A stretch of 64,000 bases of DNA from an uncultured Chloroflexia bacterium (GCA_963829295.1 CAWHHU010000010.1:642871-706870), one strand, 5' to 3'; shown: positions 28,064 through 35,395, numbered from the stretch's first letter. Made by a program: numbers and translations. The notes: generated by a model not told the origin, from the letters alone.

Positions 28064-28666
28064 ATGGCGCGCCCGAACCGGGCCTCGGAGGCGTTGCCGC
28101 CCGCCGGGACGGTGCCCGATGGCACGACCGAGCTGGGCATCGACATCGTCAAGGTGGACCGAATCAGAGCGGCCATGGCCCGGTTCGGCGACCGCTTCTC
28201 GCGCCGCGTCCTGACCGACGCGGAGCGACGCTATGTCCGCGACCGTGCGGAGACGTTCGCCGGCCGGTGGGCGGCCAAGGAGGCCGTGTCGAAGGTCCTG
28301 GGCCTGGGCGTCCGTGGCATCGGCTGGCGGGACATCGAGGTGGAGCGGCTGCCCACCGGGCAGCCATCGATCGCGCTGCACGGGCGTGCGGTCACCCGGG
28401 CGGAGCAGCTCGGGATGGGCCGGATCGCCGTCTCGATCACCCATGAGGCGGAGTACGCGGTCGCGATCGCGTTCGGGATCAGGACGGCCGGCGGACGGTA
28501 CCTGTTCCCACCCGACATCGAGCAGCGGCTCGACGGCCGCGAACGGGCCCTGCTGGCCCGGTTCGAGCGGATGCGCGAGCTCCACGAGGCGACGCGGGCC
28601 ATGGCGGCCGAGGTCGACGCCGTCGAGAGCGCAGGCACGCTGCGAGATGAGGTGCGGCATGCGTGA
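28064..28666 (+). CDS. acpS: Holo-[acyl-carrier-protein] synthase with about 75-aa C-terminal extension
   Basis: ATG at 28064, 2 nt after the glmS stop. IDIVKVDRI..., GRWAAKEAVSKVLG. Confidence 0.8.
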   Translation: MARPNRASEALPPAGTVPDGTTELGIDIVKVDRIRAAMARFGDRFSRRVLTDAERRYVRDRAETFAGRWAAKEAVSKVLGLGVRGIGWRDIEVERLPTGQPSIALHGRAVTRAEQLGMGRIAVSITHEAEYAVAIAFGIRTAGGRYLFPPDIEQRLDGRERALLARFERMRELHEATRAMAAEVDAVESAGTLRDEVRHA

Positions 28667-29921
28667 TCGACGACCCGTGGGTTTCGGCAGCCCGGCGCCG
28701 GATGCTGTCGTCGAACGCAGCACGGTGGGCGTCGCCGCCGGGCCCCGGACGCTGGACGACGACGCGATGGCCGGCCTCGTCCCGCGGCGCAGCAAGCGCG
28801 GCCACAAGGGGAGCTTCGGCAAGCTGCTCGTGATCGCCGGCTCGCTCGACTACGCGGGTGCCGCCCTGCTGGTATGCCGCGCGGCCGGCCGCGCCGGAGC
28901 CGGCCTGGTGACCCTTGCGGTACCCGAGTCGCTCCAGCCGCTGTTCGCGGCCAAGGTGGTCGAGGCCACCACCATGGCGATGCCCGAGGACGACGTCGAG
29001 GAGGTCGATCCCGAGCCTGCGCTGGCCAAGGTGCTCGACCACGACCATGACGCGCTGGTCGTCGGGCCCGGGCTTCGGCCGTCGTTGGCGACCGCGGAGC
29101 TGCTCCGGCTGCTGCTGACGGCCGGCGAAGAAGCCCTGAACGGATGGCCAGAGGGGTCGCCGCCTCGCTCCGCCGACGCGACGCCGGTGGTGCTGGACGC
29201 CGAGGCGCTGCGGACGCTGGCGGCGGCGGACGCGTGGTGGACGCGGGTGGGCCGGCCCTGCGTGCTCACGCCGCACAGCGGTGAGTTCGCCCGCCTGCGG
29301 GCGGGCAGCGGTCATGACCCCGCCGACGACGGCGATCTCAACGGCGACGATGATGCTCGGGCTCGAGCCGCGGTTGCCGCGGCCACCGAGTGGGGCCAGG
29401 TGGTGGTCCTCAAGGGTGCCCGGACGGTGATTGCCGCGCCCGGCGGCAAGCTGGCGGTGGCTCCGTTCGAGAATCCAGCCATGGCCTCCGGTGGCACCGG
29501 CGACGTGCTGTCGGGCACGATCGGGGGGCTGCTGGCGCAGGGATTGGCGCCGTTCGATGCGGCCAGGCTGGGTGTCTACCTCCACGGGCTCGCGGGCGAT
29601 GCCGTGCGCGAGCGCATCGGCGATGCCGGGCTGCTGGCCGGCGACCTGCCCGACGCGCTGCCGATCGGACGCCGTCGTCTGGCCCGGATCGCGGAGCGCC
29701 AGCGGAGCGGGCGACGCCTCGGATTTGGTGCGCGAGACGACCCCGAGGCGGCCGGGACGGATCCGGGCGACGCGCGAAACGACGCACACGACGAGGGCCC
29801 CGACCCGGTTGACGGCGACGGGCAGGAGCCGGCCGGAGGCGAGGATCGCGAGCCTGGCAGCGACAGCACCGATGCGACGGCCATGGACGGTGCATCCCGT
29901 GGCCCGCGGAGCGGGAGGTGA
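28659..29921 (+). CDS. nnr: ADP-dependent NAD(P)H-hydrate dehydratase (YjeF C-terminal domain only) with acidic disordered tail
   Basis: ATG overlaps the acpS stop (ATGCGTGA). GTGDVLSG motif, carbohydrate-kinase fold. No YjeF-N epimerase domain. Confidence 0.82.
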   Translation: MRDRRPVGFGSPAPDAVVERSTVGVAAGPRTLDDDAMAGLVPRRSKRGHKGSFGKLLVIAGSLDYAGAALLVCRAAGRAGAGLVTLAVPESLQPLFAAKVVEATTMAMPEDDVEEVDPEPALAKVLDHDHDALVVGPGLRPSLATAELLRLLLTAGEEALNGWPEGSPPRSADATPVVLDAEALRTLAAADAWWTRVGRPCVLTPHSGEFARLRAGSGHDPADDGDLNGDDDARARAAVAAATEWGQVVVLKGARTVIAAPGGKLAVAPFENPAMASGGTGDVLSGTIGGLLAQGLAPFDAARLGVYLHGLAGDAVRERIGDAGLLAGDLPDALPIGRRRLARIAERQRSGRRLGFGARDDPEAAGTDPGDARNDAHDEGPDPVDGDGQEPAGGEDREPGSDSTDATAMDGASRGPRSGR

Positions 29922-31270
29922 CGCTGAACGAGATCGGCGAGCTGTCGCCGGCCCTCGCGGCGCGCAGGCCGATCGAGGATTGCCTCGCGGCGGCAGGCCT
30001 GCCCCAGCTGCCCCGGACCGCCTGGCTCGAGGTCGACCTCGATGCGCTGCGTGGCAACCTCGGCGTGCTCCGCGAGCTCGTCGGGCCCGACGTTCGCCTC
30101 GAGCCGGTCGTCAAGGCCGACGCCTACGGTCATGGCGCTGGCCCGGTCGCACGCACGCTCGAGGCGGCCGGAGCCGATGGGCTCGCGGTCGCCACCATCG
30201 ACGAGGCGGTGGAGCTGCGCGACGCCGGTGTGACGCTGCCGATCCTGGTCCTGTACCCGGTGCCGCCGGGGCAGGTCGCCACGCCCGTCGCGCTGGGTGT
30301 CGCGGTCGCGCTCGGCGGGGGAGCGTCCGCCCAAAGGGTGCTCGCGGCCGCAGATCGCGCGCTGGCGGACCACCCCGGCCAGGTGCTCGACATCCACCTC
30401 GAGCTCGAGACGGGTCTCGGGCGTGGCGGCATTCTGCCGGGCGATGCGGCCGCGTCGGTGGCGGCGATCGGGCAGCGGGCGGGCGTGCGTCTGGGTGGGA
30501 TCTGGACCCACGTGGCCGCAGCCGATGACCTGGCGGCCACCCGCCTCCAGGATGCGCGGTTCGGGGCGGCGCTCGACGGCCTTGCCGACGCCGCCCGGCT
30601 GGGTGGCCGCGATGCCTGGCGCCACCTCGCCGCGAGCGGCGTCGTGCTGGCGGCCGACGTGCGACGCTGGGACGCGGTGCGCGTCGGGCTGGCCGTCTAT
30701 GGCCTGGTCCCCGACGCCCTCGTCCCGCCGCCCGAGACCTCGGAGGCCGCCGCCCGCCTGCGCCCGGCCATGAGCCTCGTCACGCGACCCATCCGCGTGG
30801 CCCGGCTGCCGTCCGGGCACGGGGTGAGCTACGGCCCGTCGTTCGTGACCGCCCGGCCGACGCAGATCGCAACCCTCCCAGTCGGGTACGGGGATGGCTG
30901 GCGGCGGGCGCTGTCCGATCGTGCCCAGGCGCTGGTCCGCGGACATCGCGTGCCGCTCGTCGGCCGGGTATCCATGGATGCTGTGATGGCCGACGTCACC
31001 GACGTTCCGGGCCCGCCCGTCACCGAGGACGACGAGGTGGTGCTGCTGGGGGCGCAGGGAAGCCAGCGGATCACGGCCTTCGAGCTGGCGGCGACCTGTG
31101 AGACGATCTCCTACGAGATCCTGACCGGGCTGTCCCGCCGTCTGCCCCGGGTGTACCATGCCGCGGGTTCGCCCGTGGAGATCCGGCTCCTTGCGGGCGG
31201 GAGGTCCGAATGGCGCGAATCGAGCTCTGGAACGGCGATATCTGCGACCTCGAGGTCGACGCGATCGTAA
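29918..31270 (+). CDS. alr: Alanine racemase
   Basis: VVKADAYGHG PLP-lysine motif. GTG start overlapping the nnr stop. The C-terminal ~20 codons overlap the next gene. Confidence 0.9.
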   Translation: MTLNEIGELSPALAARRPIEDCLAAAGLPQLPRTAWLEVDLDALRGNLGVLRELVGPDVRLEPVVKADAYGHGAGPVARTLEAAGADGLAVATIDEAVELRDAGVTLPILVLYPVPPGQVATPVALGVAVALGGGASAQRVLAAADRALADHPGQVLDIHLELETGLGRGGILPGDAAASVAAIGQRAGVRLGGIWTHVAAADDLAATRLQDARFGAALDGLADAARLGGRDAWRHLAASGVVLAADVRRWDAVRVGLAVYGLVPDALVPPPETSEAAARLRPAMSLVTRPIRVARLPSGHGVSYGPSFVTARPTQIATLPVGYGDGWRRALSDRAQALVRGHRVPLVGRVSMDAVMADVTDVPGPPVTEDDEVVLLGAQGSQRITAFELAATCETISYEILTGLSRRLPRVYHAAGSPVEIRLLAGGRSEWRESSSGTAISATSRSTRS

Positions 31271-31800
31271 GTCCCGCGGCGACCTCGTTGTGGATGTCGA
31301 CCGGCGTGGCGGGCGAGCTCAAGCGTGCGGGCGGCGATGAGATCGAGTTCGCTGCCATCCGCCAGGCACCGGCGGTGATCGGCACGGCGGTGGTCACCCC
31401 GGCCGGCCGGCTCGCGGCCCGCTACCTCATCCATGCCGTGTCGCTCGAGCGCGATCGCCGGACCAGCGAGGCCGCGATCGACCAGGCCGCCCGGAGCGCG
31501 ATGGCGCGGGCACGCGAGCTGGGTCTGGCGAGCATCGCGTTCCCGGCGCTCGGGACGGGCATCGGGGGCTTCCCGATGGCCGAGGCGGCCCGGGTGGCGG
31601 TCCATGCGGTCCGCGACGAGCTTCGGACCCCCTCCACGATCGAGCACGTCGTGTTCGCCCTGCGCGGCGCCGCCGCCTATGAGGCGTTCGCCCACGCCCT
31701 GTCCGCGGCGGACGTCTCGTCGCCCAACGCGGCGTCGACCGCCGCCGGCTCCACGACGGTGCCCTTGCCGGCCAGAGGGGCCGACGAGGCGCGCCGGTGA
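31210..31800 (+). CDS. Macro-domain protein (ADP-ribose binding / O-acetyl-ADP-ribose deacetylase-like)
   Basis: ICDLEVDAIVSPA..., GTGIGGFP, 196 aa. Starts inside the alr 3' end. Confidence 0.75.
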   Translation: MARIELWNGDICDLEVDAIVSPAATSLWMSTGVAGELKRAGGDEIEFAAIRQAPAVIGTAVVTPAGRLAARYLIHAVSLERDRRTSEAAIDQAARSAMARARELGLASIAFPALGTGIGGFPMAEAARVAVHAVRDELRTPSTIEHVVFALRGAAAYEAFAHALSAADVSSPNAASTAAGSTTVPLPARGADEARR

Positions 31801-32087
31801 GCCTGCCGCTGGAGCCGTTCGATGAGCGCCGTGAGGCGCTCGTGGAGGCGGTCGCGCGCGAGATCCGCATCCGCGGCCTCACCGGCCCGGCCGTCCATTT
31901 TCTCGAGGCCAGCCGGCCGTATCGTCCACTCGGGGCGCCCGCGATGCTGTTCTTCGATCCCGTCCTGCGGGACCTGTTCGGTGGCGAGACCCCGGTCGCA
32001 AGCGAGCTCCTGCGCGACGATGCCGGGATCGAGGCGCTGATCGATCGGCTCGAGGAGCTCGACGAAGCCGACGGCTGGGACGCCTGA
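31797..32087 (+). CDS. Small acidic hypothetical protein (96 aa)
   Basis: GTG overlaps the macro-gene stop. High GC3 coding signature. Acidic C-terminus (EELDEADGWDA). Confidence 0.5.
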   Translation: MSLPLEPFDERREALVEAVAREIRIRGLTGPAVHFLEASRPYRPLGAPAMLFFDPVLRDLFGGETPVASELLRDDAGIEALIDRLEELDEADGWDA

Positions 32088-32135
32088 CGCCCCGGACCCG
32101 GTGGTCGGCATGCCGCCACTGGTAGCATCGGGCCG

Positions 32136-33740
32136 GTGAGCAGCGAGCCGCGGGCCTTCGTCACCGTCGATCGCGGAACGGCGACCACCGCGGTCGCGCT
32201 GGTCGGCAGGGTGGATGGGCGGTGGCGCCTCCTGGGGGCGACGAGCGGGCCGGTGGAGGTGCCTCCGGAGGCGCTCGTCGAGCGTCTGCGACGCCGGCTC
32301 TGCGCGGTCGATCCGGAGCTGGCGGCATCGCTCCTGATCCACACGGACGGCGCCGCCGAGGCGATGCCCCGGATCAGCTGTGCCACCGCGGCCCCGCCCG
32401 AGATCGCGGTCGTCGCCGCGACGCATCGTGCCCTGATGCCCCTCTCCGCGACCGCCCGCGAGACCGGCTGGCAGGTCGTGCCGGTGACGCTCGAGGGAGC
32501 GCAGATCACGACGGTCGCAGCGACGCTGGCCAACCCCCGGCTCTCGGCTGTCCTGGCCGGCGCCGGGGACCCTCCAGGGGGCGACGAGCGTCCGCTGATG
32601 GCGGAGCTCGCGATGCAGGTCGGGGCGGCGGCCAACCGGCGACCCGACCTGACCATGATCCTCACCGGGAGCCTTGCCGAGCCCGGCGGGCGGTACGAAG
32701 CATCGCTCCGCCAGGATCGGGTCGGGGCGACGATCGTTGGCCCCTCGCCGGGGGCAGCCGGCGGGGGGCCGCTGCGGCGGCTCCTCGACAGCATCCGGTC
32801 GGGTGATGACGATGGCCGTCGAGCGCTGGGCGTGGCGACGGCAACGCTGGCCGAGGTCCTCCGGCGATCCGTGGGGGTCGTCGAGGTGGGGCAGTCGTCG
32901 GGGATGCGGGCCGTGGCCGACCACGCCCCGGGCGCGCCCTCCCAGGTCGAGGTGGCCATCGTCGCCGATGCCGCGCTGTTGCCCAGGAGGTTCACCGACG
33001 GGCATCTCGACGCCATCGCCGGCTGGCTCCCGGTGCCGCTCGACCGGCTGCGGATCCGGGACCGCCTCCGGGAGCTCGCCATGTCGCCCTGGGGAGACGC
33101 GGCCGGCGAGGGGGCCGCGCTCCGGCTGGCCGCGGCCCGGGCGGCCGTGCAGCGGCTGGCGGCGGCCACGCACCGTCTCGACGGCGCGCGTCCGGCCGTC
33201 ACCGTCGCGGTGGGTGGCGTGTGGTCCGCGGTGCCGGCGCCCTTGACCGCGCTGGCGCTGGCCGACGTGCTGCGACGCCCCGGCTTCCACGCTTTCGGGA
33301 TCGACCACGCGCGGCTTCTCGCGCCGCTGGGCACGATCGCGGACGCGGACGAGCGGCGCCAGCTGATGGCCGACCTGTGTGACGAGCTCGTCGCTCCGCT
33401 GGGCAGCGTGGTCATGCCGGCCGGGTTCCGTCCGGGTCGGTCGGCGGGTCGGCTCGTGCTGCATCGGGCAACCTCGGACACCACCATCGATCTCGTGCCG
33501 GGCGGCATCGAGCGGGTGGAGCTGGCACCCGGGGAGCGGGCCATCGCCGAGCTCGAGCTGCGCGAGGCGCTGGACCTCGGCGTCCGCACCCGGCGCGCGG
33601 CGGCCGAGATCGCGGGCGGCCTGGTCGGGCTGCTGGTGGACCTGCGCGATGTCCCGCTCCGGTTGCCGGAGCGCCCGGAGCGGCGTCGTGATGTGCTGAC
33701 CGCGTGGGAGCGGGTCGTGTGGCCAGCCGCCGCGCGATGA
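32136..33740 (+). CDS. Hypothetical protein, 534 aa, N-terminal ASKHA-like phosphate-1 motif
   Basis: AFVTVDRGTATTAVALV resembles the D-x-G-T/S-x-x-T-K/A start of actin/sugar-kinase/EutA-MutL-type ATPases. Strong GC3 bias. Confidence 0.6.
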   Translation: MSSEPRAFVTVDRGTATTAVALVGRVDGRWRLLGATSGPVEVPPEALVERLRRRLCAVDPELAASLLIHTDGAAEAMPRISCATAAPPEIAVVAATHRALMPLSATARETGWQVVPVTLEGAQITTVAATLANPRLSAVLAGAGDPPGGDERPLMAELAMQVGAAANRRPDLTMILTGSLAEPGGRYEASLRQDRVGATIVGPSPGAAGGGPLRRLLDSIRSGDDDGRRALGVATATLAEVLRRSVGVVEVGQSSGMRAVADHAPGAPSQVEVAIVADAALLPRRFTDGHLDAIAGWLPVPLDRLRIRDRLRELAMSPWGDAAGEGAALRLAAARAAVQRLAAATHRLDGARPAVTVAVGGVWSAVPAPLTALALADVLRRPGFHAFGIDHARLLAPLGTIADADERRQLMADLCDELVAPLGSVVMPAGFRPGRSAGRLVLHRATSDTTIDLVPGGIERVELAPGERAIAELELREALDLGVRTRRAAAEIAGGLVGLLVDLRDVPLRLPERPERRRDVLTAWERVVWPAAAR

Positions 33741-34894
33741 CGCAGGCAGCTGACTGGCTGGCGGAGGTCGCGCAGCGCCCGGTTGCAAGCCGGGATCTCG
33801 CCGTTCGCTTCGTCATGGTGCCGGGCGACCGCCCGCTCGTTGCCGCGGGCGACAAGGTGGAGCCGGGCGACCAGCTGTTCGAGCGGCTCCGCGACCGGCG
33901 GATCGAGGAGGTGACGATCCCCTCGGCGGCGGGTCCCGCGGCGCAGCCCGAGACGGGCGCCGCGACAGACCCGGTGACGCAGGCTGCGGCGGACCCGGAG
34001 GCTGGCGCCTCCGAGGCTCGCACGGCAGGCGGTCTCCCCGGGGCTGGCGAGACCGGACCGGCGACCGGGCGTCGCTGGACTCCGGTAGCCACGTCCCGGA
34101 TCCGGCGCCATGTCGCGGGCGCCGAAGGCGAGCTGCTGGCGCCCATCCCCGGACGACGGGATCGATGGCGAATGATCACCGGCGAGCACCGGGATCCGGT
34201 CGAGTCGCCGATCGCGGGGGTGGTCACGATGGTGGTTCCGGGGTCGGAGATCGTGATCCTCGCCGCGGGGCTCACGATCCGCGGTGCGCTGGCCGCCGGG
34301 GTCCCGGCGCACGGCCGTCTCGAGCTGGCCACGGACCCGTTCGGGGAGCTTCGTTCCGGCGGGATCGACGTCGGTCGCGCGGGAAGCGTCCTGGTGGTGG
34401 GTGCCAGGATCGACGCCGAGGCGCTGACCAGGGCACGGGCGATGGGCGTCCGCGGCATCGTCGTGGCGTCGCTGTCGGGCAAGGACCTGCGCGACTTTCA
34501 GGCATCGGAGCGCCGCCAGCGCGCCTCGCTGCATGCCGCCCCGCCATTCGCCGTGGTTGCGCTCGACGGTACCGCCCGGCGGCCGATCCCGACCCCGGTC
34601 GCCTCCTTGCTGGGCCGGCTGGCGGGTCGCGACGTGGGATTGGTGATGGACCCGCCGGGACTCGTGTTCGATCCTGCCGGGGTGGAGCTCCCGGACATCG
34701 ATGCGGCCTGGGTACGCATCCGCTCGGGACCCGGGGCCGGTGCCGAGGGGTGCGTGGTGGGTCCTGCCGGGCTGCACTGGTTCGGCCGCGGGACCCAGCT
34801 CGAGGCGATGCTCGTCGCCCTCGAGGGTGAGCCCGCGCGACCGATTCCGATCGGCGATCTCGAGCGGCTCGCCTGGCCACCGGCGACGCGGTGA
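33737..34894 (+). CDS. Hypothetical protein, 385 aa
   Basis: ATG overlaps the upstream stop (ATGA). Strong GC3 bias. No recognisable catalytic motif. Confidence 0.55.
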   Translation: MTQAADWLAEVAQRPVASRDLAVRFVMVPGDRPLVAAGDKVEPGDQLFERLRDRRIEEVTIPSAAGPAAQPETGAATDPVTQAAADPEAGASEARTAGGLPGAGETGPATGRRWTPVATSRIRRHVAGAEGELLAPIPGRRDRWRMITGEHRDPVESPIAGVVTMVVPGSEIVILAAGLTIRGALAAGVPAHGRLELATDPFGELRSGGIDVGRAGSVLVVGARIDAEALTRARAMGVRGIVVASLSGKDLRDFQASERRQRASLHAAPPFAVVALDGTARRPIPTPVASLLGRLAGRDVGLVMDPPGLVFDPAGVELPDIDAAWVRIRSGPGAGAEGCVVGPAGLHWFGRGTQLEAMLVALEGEPARPIPIGDLERLAWPPATR

Positions 34895-34921: not shown

Positions 34922-35395
34922 ATGTCCGGGCAACCCGTTTATGAGCACCTAGTCACGACACGCGACGCGCAGGAGACGCGTGGGCTGGCTGCCCGCATGG
35001 CCGCCGCCGCGCGTGCGGGCGATCTCGTCTGCCTGGTTGGGGAGCTCGGCGCCGGCAAGACCCAGTTCGCCAAGGGCTTTGCGGCAGGGCTCGGCGTCAC
35101 CGAGACCGTGAACTCGCCCACGTTCGTCCTGATGGCCGAGTATCCCGGCCGGCTGCCCCTGTTCCACGTCGACCTGTACCGGCTCGACGACGCGGCCGAT
35201 GCGCTTGCCGGTGGCCTGCTCGACGAGCGACAGCGTGCCGGCGTCGCGATCGTGGAGTGGGCCGAGCGGCTGGGCGCCGCGCTGCCCAGGTCTCGGCTGG
35301 ACGTGATCATCGACGGAGCCGGCGACGACCCTCGCCGGATCGCGCTGCGGATCGCTGACGAGGGGTATCGCCGGTATCTCAAGGCCGCCGCGTGA
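34922..35395 (+). CDS. tsaE: tRNA t6A37 biosynthesis ATPase TsaE
   Basis: GELGAGKTQFAKG P-loop, VNSPTFVLMAEY. Confidence 0.9.
   Translation: MSGQPVYEHLVTTRDAQETRGLAARMAAAARAGDLVCLVGELGAGKTQFAKGFAAGLGVTETVNSPTFVLMAEYPGRLPLFHVDLYRLDDAADALAGGLLDERQRAGVAIVEWAERLGAALPRSRLDVIIDGAGDDPRRIALRIADEGYRRYLKAAA

Follow-up and report, generated by a model that had tools for sequence, protein, structure and literature searches.

The described systems that come closest to the locus reported here are the GlmL/MutL family of ASKHA ATPases (PF13941; NF040745, 'methylaspartate mutase accessory protein GlmL'; NF040744, 'GlmL-related ornithine degradation protein'; TIGR01319) and the diol-dehydratase reactivase DdrA/DdrB (2d0o). 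MutL/GlmL is called a reactivating chaperone in a figure legend (PMC4682846), and our literature search on PF13941, DUF6754 and GlmL yielded nothing beyond that legend. We analysed a 64-kb window, meaning the whole stretch of 64,000 nucleotides from an uncultured Chloroflexia bacterium (GCA_963829295.1 CAWHHU010000010.1:642871-706870), and all coordinates below are positions in this window. Between alr and tsaE, the window carries a block of four open reading frames (ORFs) on the same strand (+), encoding a stand-alone macro domain protein of 196 aa, an acidic protein of 96 aa (p96), a protein of 534 aa (p534) that, according to its predicted structure and profile links, is a divergent ASKHA ATPase of the GlmL/MutL family into which a flavodoxin-like domain is inserted and which has an extra C-terminal beta domain, and a partner protein of 385 aa (p385). 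This block is very probably a fixed, ancient and vertically inherited housekeeping segment that is found class-wide and encodes proteins with the folds assigned below, and we tentatively propose that its core works as a reactivase-like machine.

Homologues of p534 and p385 were recovered in the hundreds, all of them from Chloroflexota metagenome-assembled genomes labelled Candidatus Limnocylindrales or Limnocylindria. Relatives of p534 were encoded in at least 334 species-level genomes in a scan with one genome per species, and a single-protein metagenome scan gave 2 loci. Judged from these relatives, the lineage of the window is the class Candidatus Limnocylindria (formerly Ellin6529) of the Chloroflexota, an abundant group of soil and freshwater that, to our knowledge, is known solely through metagenome-assembled genomes. 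We compared the 80 best loci, taking one genome per species and 15 kb for each. The order nnr-alr-macro-p96-p534-p385-tsaE-tsaB-rimI-tsaD was collinear and on one strand in 80/80 loci, with the macro gene alone missing in some. The GC content was flat across the block and matched that of the flanks, nothing meaningful was found around the block in the way of bounding repeats, promoter-like sites or terminator-like sites, and no tRNA, tmRNA or Rfam family reached the threshold in the window. The identity of the four block genes to their orthologues correlated with that of alr, tsaE and tsaD (Spearman 0.45–0.83), and the ratio of non-synonymous to synonymous substitution rates (dN/dS), computed against three relatives, was 0.035–0.063 for p96, 0.21–0.29 for the macro gene, 0.21–0.34 for p534 and 0.24–0.33 for p385, a range like that of the flanks. 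Together, these features argue for an ancient block passed on vertically and not for an island.

Since dN/dS was 0.035–0.34 throughout, all four ORFs are genuine coding genes under purifying selection, and the possibility raised in the original prediction that they lack coding conservation (dN/dS ~1) is contradicted by these ratios and by the hundreds of homologues. The same prediction had described the four genes as an insertion into an Actinobacteria-type neighbourhood. Other phyla do have alr and tsaE side by side and the block does separate the two genes here, but the separation is ancient and fixed class-wide rather than recent (80/80 loci and other orders), and the homologues all belong to Chloroflexota of the class Candidatus Limnocylindria. 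The four genes are ubiquitous at this position in the relatives, but no housekeeping function is assigned to three of their products. The fallback offered in the original prediction, a lineage-specific add-on, fits a class-wide vertical block.

The assignment of p534 (32136..33740, +) draws on AlphaFold, Foldseek and a transitive profile link. The AlphaFold model, made with 42 homologues, had an ASKHA fold with a predicted local distance difference test score (pLDDT) of 89 and a predicted template modelling score (pTM) of 0.89. Its best Foldseek matches against the PDB were members of the hydantoinase-A branch (acetophenone carboxylase, 5l9w_b, 8.6e-8; N-methylhydantoinase; acetone carboxylase beta), followed by PPX/GppA, Hsp70 (DnaK), PilM, FtsA, glycerol kinase and the corrinoid activator RACo. 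Because the model has this fold, the VDRGTATTA sequence at the N-terminus is a real ASKHA phosphate-1 motif. The nucleotide motifs expected of a hydantoinase-A-branch ASKHA protein were conserved at D12/G14, [DE]250/G252 and G360/G361 in a motif alignment of the wide family, which held 17 sequences and represented all lineages. In the phosphate-1 motif (D12-R-G14-T-A-T17; 32169..32186, +), D12 was nearly invariant and G14 invariant family-wide; in the phosphate-2 motif (E250-V-G252; 32883..32891, +), G252 was invariant and the other orders and the L088 homologue had D-x-G; and the adenosine motif (G360-G361; 33213..33218, +) was invariant in the order and had DLVxGxG as its distant equivalent. 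A flavodoxin/CheY-like alpha/beta domain with a GAGDPPGGDER loop lies in ASKHA subdomain I (~residues 79–200; 32370..32735, +). Beyond the Pfam MutL model, p534 has a C-terminal beta domain followed by a helix (33393..33737, +) with the motif GGxxGxxxDxRxxPxxxP...R...W, in which G494, G495, G498, D502, R504, P507, P511 and W524 were invariant in the 17 sequences; PF13941 covers only residues 7–463 of the L088 homologue.

By direct comparison p534 itself fell below the gathering threshold of PF13941 (27 bits), and the link to this family is transitive only. The A1 profile from the p534 side reached the relative P0369 at 4e-33, and P0369 scored 56.6 bits on PF13941 (MutL/GlmL), where P0381 scored 39.7 and the L088 homologue 208.6 bits; relatives in sister orders and in L088 thus exceed the threshold that p534 does not reach. 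The L091 homologue matched the NCBIfam models for GlmL and for the GlmL-related Or-4 protein at ~1e-23, with a score of 82 versus equivalog cut-offs of 475–600, and some relatives of p534 are named 'glutamate mutase L' in their sources.

The partner p385 (33737..34894, +) is predicted to consist, in this order, of two sandwich-barrel hybrid (SBHM) domains, an RraA-like swivelling beta/beta/alpha domain and a KOW-like domain, and its model had a pLDDT of 85.6 apart from a disordered insert. The N-terminus structurally matched barrel-sandwich hybrids (RNA polymerase beta', NqrA, RnfC and biotinyl domains) and the C-terminus matched NusG. A profile of the wide partner family, searched against the PDB, found the SBHM domain of RNA polymerase beta' Si3 at 1.6e-6 and, weakly, the KOW regions of uL24/L26, and the L088 partner passed the RnfC_N threshold. 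No match to p385 was found in Pfam (E ≤ 10), NCBIfam or PADLOC, and its own sequence-profile search of the PDB gave chance hits only. The core of the swivelling domain (~residues 199–311; 34331..34669, +) contains a block of invariant columns, GRAGSxLVVGARIDAEALTRARAMGVRGIVVASLxGKxLRDF, and this stretch was conserved in the L087, L084, L089 and L088 partners. The KOW-like C-terminal beta domain (34709..34873, +) carries WVRIRSGPGAGAEGxV...GDLER. RraA-like and other swivelling proteins (2c5q, yeast YER010C; 3k4i, PSPTO_3204; 3noj, HMG/CHA aldolase; the phosphohistidine domains of enzyme I and PPDK) resemble this core, but p385 has no Pfam RraA-like match, the R-D pair that binds metal and substrate in RraA and the residue H266 were not conserved across the wider p385 family, and the swivelling domain of p385 sits between SBHM and KOW-like domains. 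A phospho-carrier His or a lipoyl/biotinyl Lys was also considered for p385 and rejected, since no His or Lys was conserved in the wide family.

The disordered insert of p385, rich in Ala, Gly, Pro and Thr (~residues 62–128; 33920..34120, +; pLDDT 44–72), places ~65 residues between the two N-terminal beta domains; it was gapped in most orthologues and much longer in P0123. A low-complexity insert resembling it follows the flavodoxin-like domain in the p534 homologues of L089/L090 and P0242/P0251. Apparent natural fusions of p534 and p385 (P0352, 724 aa; P0362, 1198 aa) were rejected, since fragments of TsaE, TsaB and RimI are joined to them as well, as would be expected if error-prone assemblies had led to frameshifted or merged gene calls.

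The small protein p96 (31797..32087, +) has an isoelectric point (pI) of 4.33 and no transmembrane segment. Its median identity among 78 genomes was 81.8%, versus 80.7% for TsaD, so that p96 ranks first in conservation among the ten genes of the stretch. The protein has an invariant core, SRPYRxLGAxAMLFF...FGG, and a C-terminus of W-D-A. No match was found in Pfam (E ≤ 10), NCBIfam or PADLOC, and a profile search of the PDB gave chance hits only.

Distant relatives of p534, found with the p534 profile and then traced to their contigs, showed that the block is layered. In L084 and L087, which are other Limnocylindria lineages, the order was alr, the GlmL-like gene, the partner gene and tsaE, without the macro gene and p96, and the L087 partner was homologous to p385 (hhalign 4.8e-18). 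In L089 and L090, a 95-aa protein (p95) homologous to p96 (hhalign 7e-42) was encoded between alr and the GlmL-like gene, which was again followed by the partner gene and tsaE, and the macro gene was absent. Among the 80 loci, the macro gene was missing in three (L053, L075 and L080), where the other genes stay. As the pair occurs alone in L084/L087 and p95 occurs without the macro gene in L089/L090, the oldest layer is the pair of p534 and p385, which occupied the alr–tsaE interval in all Limnocylindria orders seen; p96 accompanies the pair in several lineages, one of them distant and outside Limnocylindria; and the macro gene is the latest, least constant and most dispensable layer.

The most distant relative of p534 (P0491) belongs to a lineage with 58% GC and has a different gene context that is kept in four contigs. 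There, an eight-gene cluster (L088:1379-11150; L091:3216-12696; L093:8812-18548; L094:3452-11895) encodes, in order, a HEAT-repeat protein, a 90-aa protein, a DUF6754 protein, a ~200-aa protein, a protein of 1000–1077 aa, a protein of ~221–250 aa, a bona fide MutL (PF13941) and a partner of 395–421 aa. The 90-aa protein of L088 was homologous to p96 (hhalign 1.2e-10 over 80 columns) and the partner to p385 (L088, hhalign 5e-12). The DUF6754 protein has 2 transmembrane segments, the ~200-aa protein ~6 and the ~221-aa protein ~5, and the acidic protein of 1000–1077 aa combines 14 P-[DE]-W-[LF] repeats with one strong transmembrane segment. None of the eight genes has an assigned function. The extra genes of the cluster were absent from the 64-kb window in a tblastn search. 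Because the trio of p96, the GlmL-like protein and the partner recurs in L088, L091, L093 and L094 away from alr and tsaE, it is a unit of its own, independent of alr, tsaE and the macro gene. It is possible, although doubtful, that this trio forms the soluble and conserved centre of a Chloroflexota system not yet described, the full form of which is the eight-gene cluster found elsewhere. If so, Limnocylindria would have wired the core into a central cell-envelope and translation operon, and the system would perform an essential, lineage-specific task powered by ATP, such as a role in assembling the envelope or membrane proteins, without a characterised counterpart.

For the block as a whole, we favour a vertical housekeeping segment that encodes a reactivase-like machine, with a rough probability of 0.45 as a compromise figure for the two parts combined. 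p534 would bind and hydrolyse ATP via its intact phosphate-1, phosphate-2 and adenosine motifs and would work in complex with p385, with the extremely conserved p96 as stoichiometric adaptor or regulatory subunit, and the machine would use ATP to remodel or reactivate a client protein. We ranked such a protein-remodelling or reactivation-type machine first because GlmL/MutL is so described and because the pair repeats the domain repertoire of DdrA/DdrB; by this analogy it is the most likely mechanism, while its own chances stay well below even. Several points weigh against it. p534 had no Pfam match even at E ≤ 10 and none among the NCBIfam GlmL models or in PADLOC, and its sequence-profile search of the PDB gave chance hits only. 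The assignments of p534 and p385 come from sequence and fold, the reactivase role of GlmL is a literature description only, and a physical p96–p534–p385 complex is proposed from gene linkage only. No coenzyme-B12 mutase (glmS/glmE, oraS/oraE) or other obvious client gene adjoins the block, the neighbours being alr and tsaE in Limnocylindria and membrane proteins in the L088-type clusters. The distant trio sits with four membrane proteins and the HEAT-repeat protein, and this setting makes a membrane-associated machine at least as indicated as a soluble enzyme chaperone. In such a membrane-associated scaffold or envelope machine, the trio would be the cytoplasmic ATPase core of a membrane system specific to Chloroflexota, with a PilM/FtsA-like p534 docking on membrane partners, and its location in Limnocylindria would be next to genes for cell-envelope precursors (alr, glmS, glmM and glmU). 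Besides the membrane-rich cluster of L088, L091, L093 and L094, the presence of PilM and FtsA among the best target-normalised Foldseek TM-scores (0.31–0.38) and an operon context of alr, glmS, glmM, glmU and cdaA/cdaR are consistent with this explanation. It is a serious rival, which we nevertheless consider unlikely, given that the membrane components were absent from the window (tblastn) and from the 15-kb loci of the 80 relatives, that the four window proteins have no convincing transmembrane segments, that the top Foldseek matches were the hydantoinase/carboxylase branch and not the cytoskeletal ASKHA proteins, and that the neighbours in a long housekeeping operon are functionally mixed.

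Those same top matches would suit an ATP-dependent small-molecule enzyme, in which p534 is a kinase or ligase like hydantoinase-A or acetone carboxylase, the swivelling domain of p385 shuttles or closes over an activated intermediate, and the pathway is tied to D-alanine/cell-wall metabolism or to the repair of NAD-derived metabolites (nnr, macro). The wide partner family has no conserved His, however, with H266 lost in L087 and L088, the RraA-type R-D pair was not conserved outside the order of the window, no HyuB-like partner was present and the trio is found at distant sites from alr and nnr as well, so that we regard such an enzyme as rather improbable. An accessory role in translation or in the tRNA modification N6-threonylcarbamoyladenosine (t6A), with the KOW and SBHM domains of p385 contacting RNA or the ribosome and p534, an ASKHA protein like TsaB and TsaD, acting with TsaE/B/D, would suit the constant place of the block directly upstream of tsaE-tsaB-rimI-tsaD-ksgA in Limnocylindria and the KOW-like and RNA polymerase-type SBHM domains of p385. 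This role is very improbable, as the trio adjoins no tsa gene in L088, L091, L093 and L094, bacteria make t6A via TsaC/TsaBDE without p534/p385-type proteins, and small beta-barrel domains such as SBHM and KOW are generic. Least probable of all, and scarcely credible, is the ADP-ribosylation toxin/antitoxin or anti-phage defence module suggested in the original prediction, with the macro protein as antidote and one partner as toxin. The stand-alone macro gene is indeed closely coupled to genes that are uncharacterised, and its product gave weak DarG-macro matches, but these reached 25.8 bits in PADLOC (E = 1.6e-6, macro core only) and 24.6 bits in NCBIfam (NF048014) versus a cut-off of 250, and no other PADLOC match was found. 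The locus is not patchy, mobile or island-like, being collinear in 80/80 loci and present in other orders, with flat GC content, no bounding repeats and co-divergence with the flanks; the macro gene is its dispensable member; the partners, p96 most of all, are under strong purifying selection; and the models of p534 (ASKHA) and p385 (SBHM, swivelling and KOW-like domains) contain no ADP-ribosyltransferase (ART) fold of the DarT type, for which the original prediction had suggested looking in the partners.

The macro gene (31210..31800, +) encodes a MacroD/TTHA0132-like protein that matched PF01661 with E = 2.6e-25 (89.1 bits versus a cut-off of 22), and all NCBIfam macro equivalogs scored below their cut-offs. 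The best solved relative was Thermus thermophilus TTHA0132 (2dx6), with a full-length match at E = 6.7e-27, and Deinococcus DR_2288 was another close one. Loop 1 (residues 17–42, DAIVSPAATSLWMSTGVAGELKRAGG; 31258..31335, +) was located by the alignment to 2dx6 and a motif census of 77 orthologues. The Asn residues of N-A-A-N in this loop are important for catalysis in MacroD/YmdB-type enzymes. In contrast to the V-N-A-A-N of MacroD/Af1521-type proteins, the window protein has V-S-P-A-A, with both canonical Asn residues replaced; closer relatives have V-S-P-A-[AST]-T, whereas deeper Limnocylindria and TTHA0132 have V-N-[AP]-A-N. The glycine-rich loop 2 (AFPALGTGIGGFPM; 31537..31578, +), the diphosphate-binding loop, retains the G-T-G-x-G-G-F-P of MacroD/Af1521-type proteins in the window, and AFPALGTGIGGFP was kept in nearly all orthologues. 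Because the canonical catalytic Asn residues are lost, the window protein may bind rather than hydrolyse its ligand, and the change in loop 1 under purifying selection suggests either that a hydrolase has become a binder or that catalysis proceeds by another mechanism. The macro protein probably acts independently, as a housekeeping binder or hydrolase of ADP-ribose derivatives beside a gene for NAD(P)HX repair.

The gene layout agreed with the original prediction, both in the four tightly coupled ORFs with their overlaps, as read from the ORF list and the sequence, and in the flanks, as recognised by Pfam and TIGRFAM matches; the macro domain (PF01661), the acidic p96 and the ASKHA phosphate-1 motif of p534 in its modelled fold were likewise borne out. 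Upstream, alr encodes an alanine racemase (29918..31270, +; Ala_racemase_N and Ala_racemase_C in Pfam; TIGR00492 with 285 bits versus a cut-off of 168), and downstream, tsaE (34922..35395, +) matched PF02367 with E = 3.6e-34 and TIGR00150 with 100.6 bits. The ATG of the macro gene at 31210 lies 61 nt inside alr and is preceded at a distance of 5 nt by a Shine-Dalgarno sequence, GGAGG (31200..31204, +), read directly from the sequence. The macro stop and the p96 start share GTGA at 31797–31800, and the p534 stop and the p385 start share ATGA at 33737–33740. The gaps between p96 and p534 and between p385 and tsaE are 48 and 27 nt, respectively. An alternative start at 33704 would extend p385 from 385 to 396 aa. 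The alr/macro overlap was exactly 61 nt also in L001 and L003, two relatives for which the called genes were read, and in some deeper lineages the alr match stopped ahead of the macro start. The tail of alr, which is not conserved, probably arises because the conserved N-terminal part of the macro gene is also open in an alternative frame, in a stop-poor genome with 74% GC.

The genes tsaB, rimI and tsaD were recognised 3' of tsaE and a Carb_kinase/Nnr (NAD(P)HX dehydratase) gene 5' of alr, and the wider operon has the order cdaA-cdaR(YbbR)-glmM-glmS-acpS-nnr-alr-[block]-tsaE-tsaB-rimI-tsaD-ksgA-ispE-ridA-glmU. The ORF at 28233–29921, upstream of alr, was listed with 562 aa, of which the Carb_kinase match covered only residues 198–474, and no YjeF_N epimerase domain was detected in it. 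In relatives, the Carb_kinase gene was called at 302–383 aa with a separate acpS before it. The listed start of the 562-aa ORF thus probably lies too far upstream.

Every genome examined thus carries a three-protein module without an assigned function inside a core housekeeping operon. p96 is as conserved as TsaD, and unassigned proteins conserved to this degree are good candidates for essential roles specific to a lineage. Through its link to the eight-gene cluster of other Chloroflexota, the module offers a handle for annotation: p96 and p385 each define a new family, and the GlmL-like proteins form a subfamily marked by a C-terminal domain. Surveys of ADP-ribosylation defence or toxin-antitoxin islands should leave this block out.

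Compared with DarTG, the only common feature of the window block is a macro domain beside uncharacterised genes; the block has no DarT/ART partner and its DarG scores are far below the cut-off, and while DarTG is variable, this locus is fixed, syntenic and housekeeping. The likeness to DdrA/DdrB is architectural only. The ASKHA ATPase, flavodoxin-like and swivelling domain types are common to that reactivase and the p534–p385 pair, but they are spread over different polypeptides in another order, without detectable sequence similarity; DdrA/DdrB lacks the SBHM and KOW-like domains that p385 adds, and no B12 enzyme is encoded near the pair. With GlmL/MutL proteins, p534 shares the ASKHA fold, the inserted alpha/beta domain and the three motifs, and it differs from them in its extra, highly conserved C-terminal beta domain of ~110 residues, in being always paired with a p385-type partner and in adjoining no glutamate mutase or ornithine aminomutase genes. 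Relative to these described systems, the C-terminal domain of the GlmL-type subfamily, the domain architecture of its partner and the ultra-conserved small protein are new.

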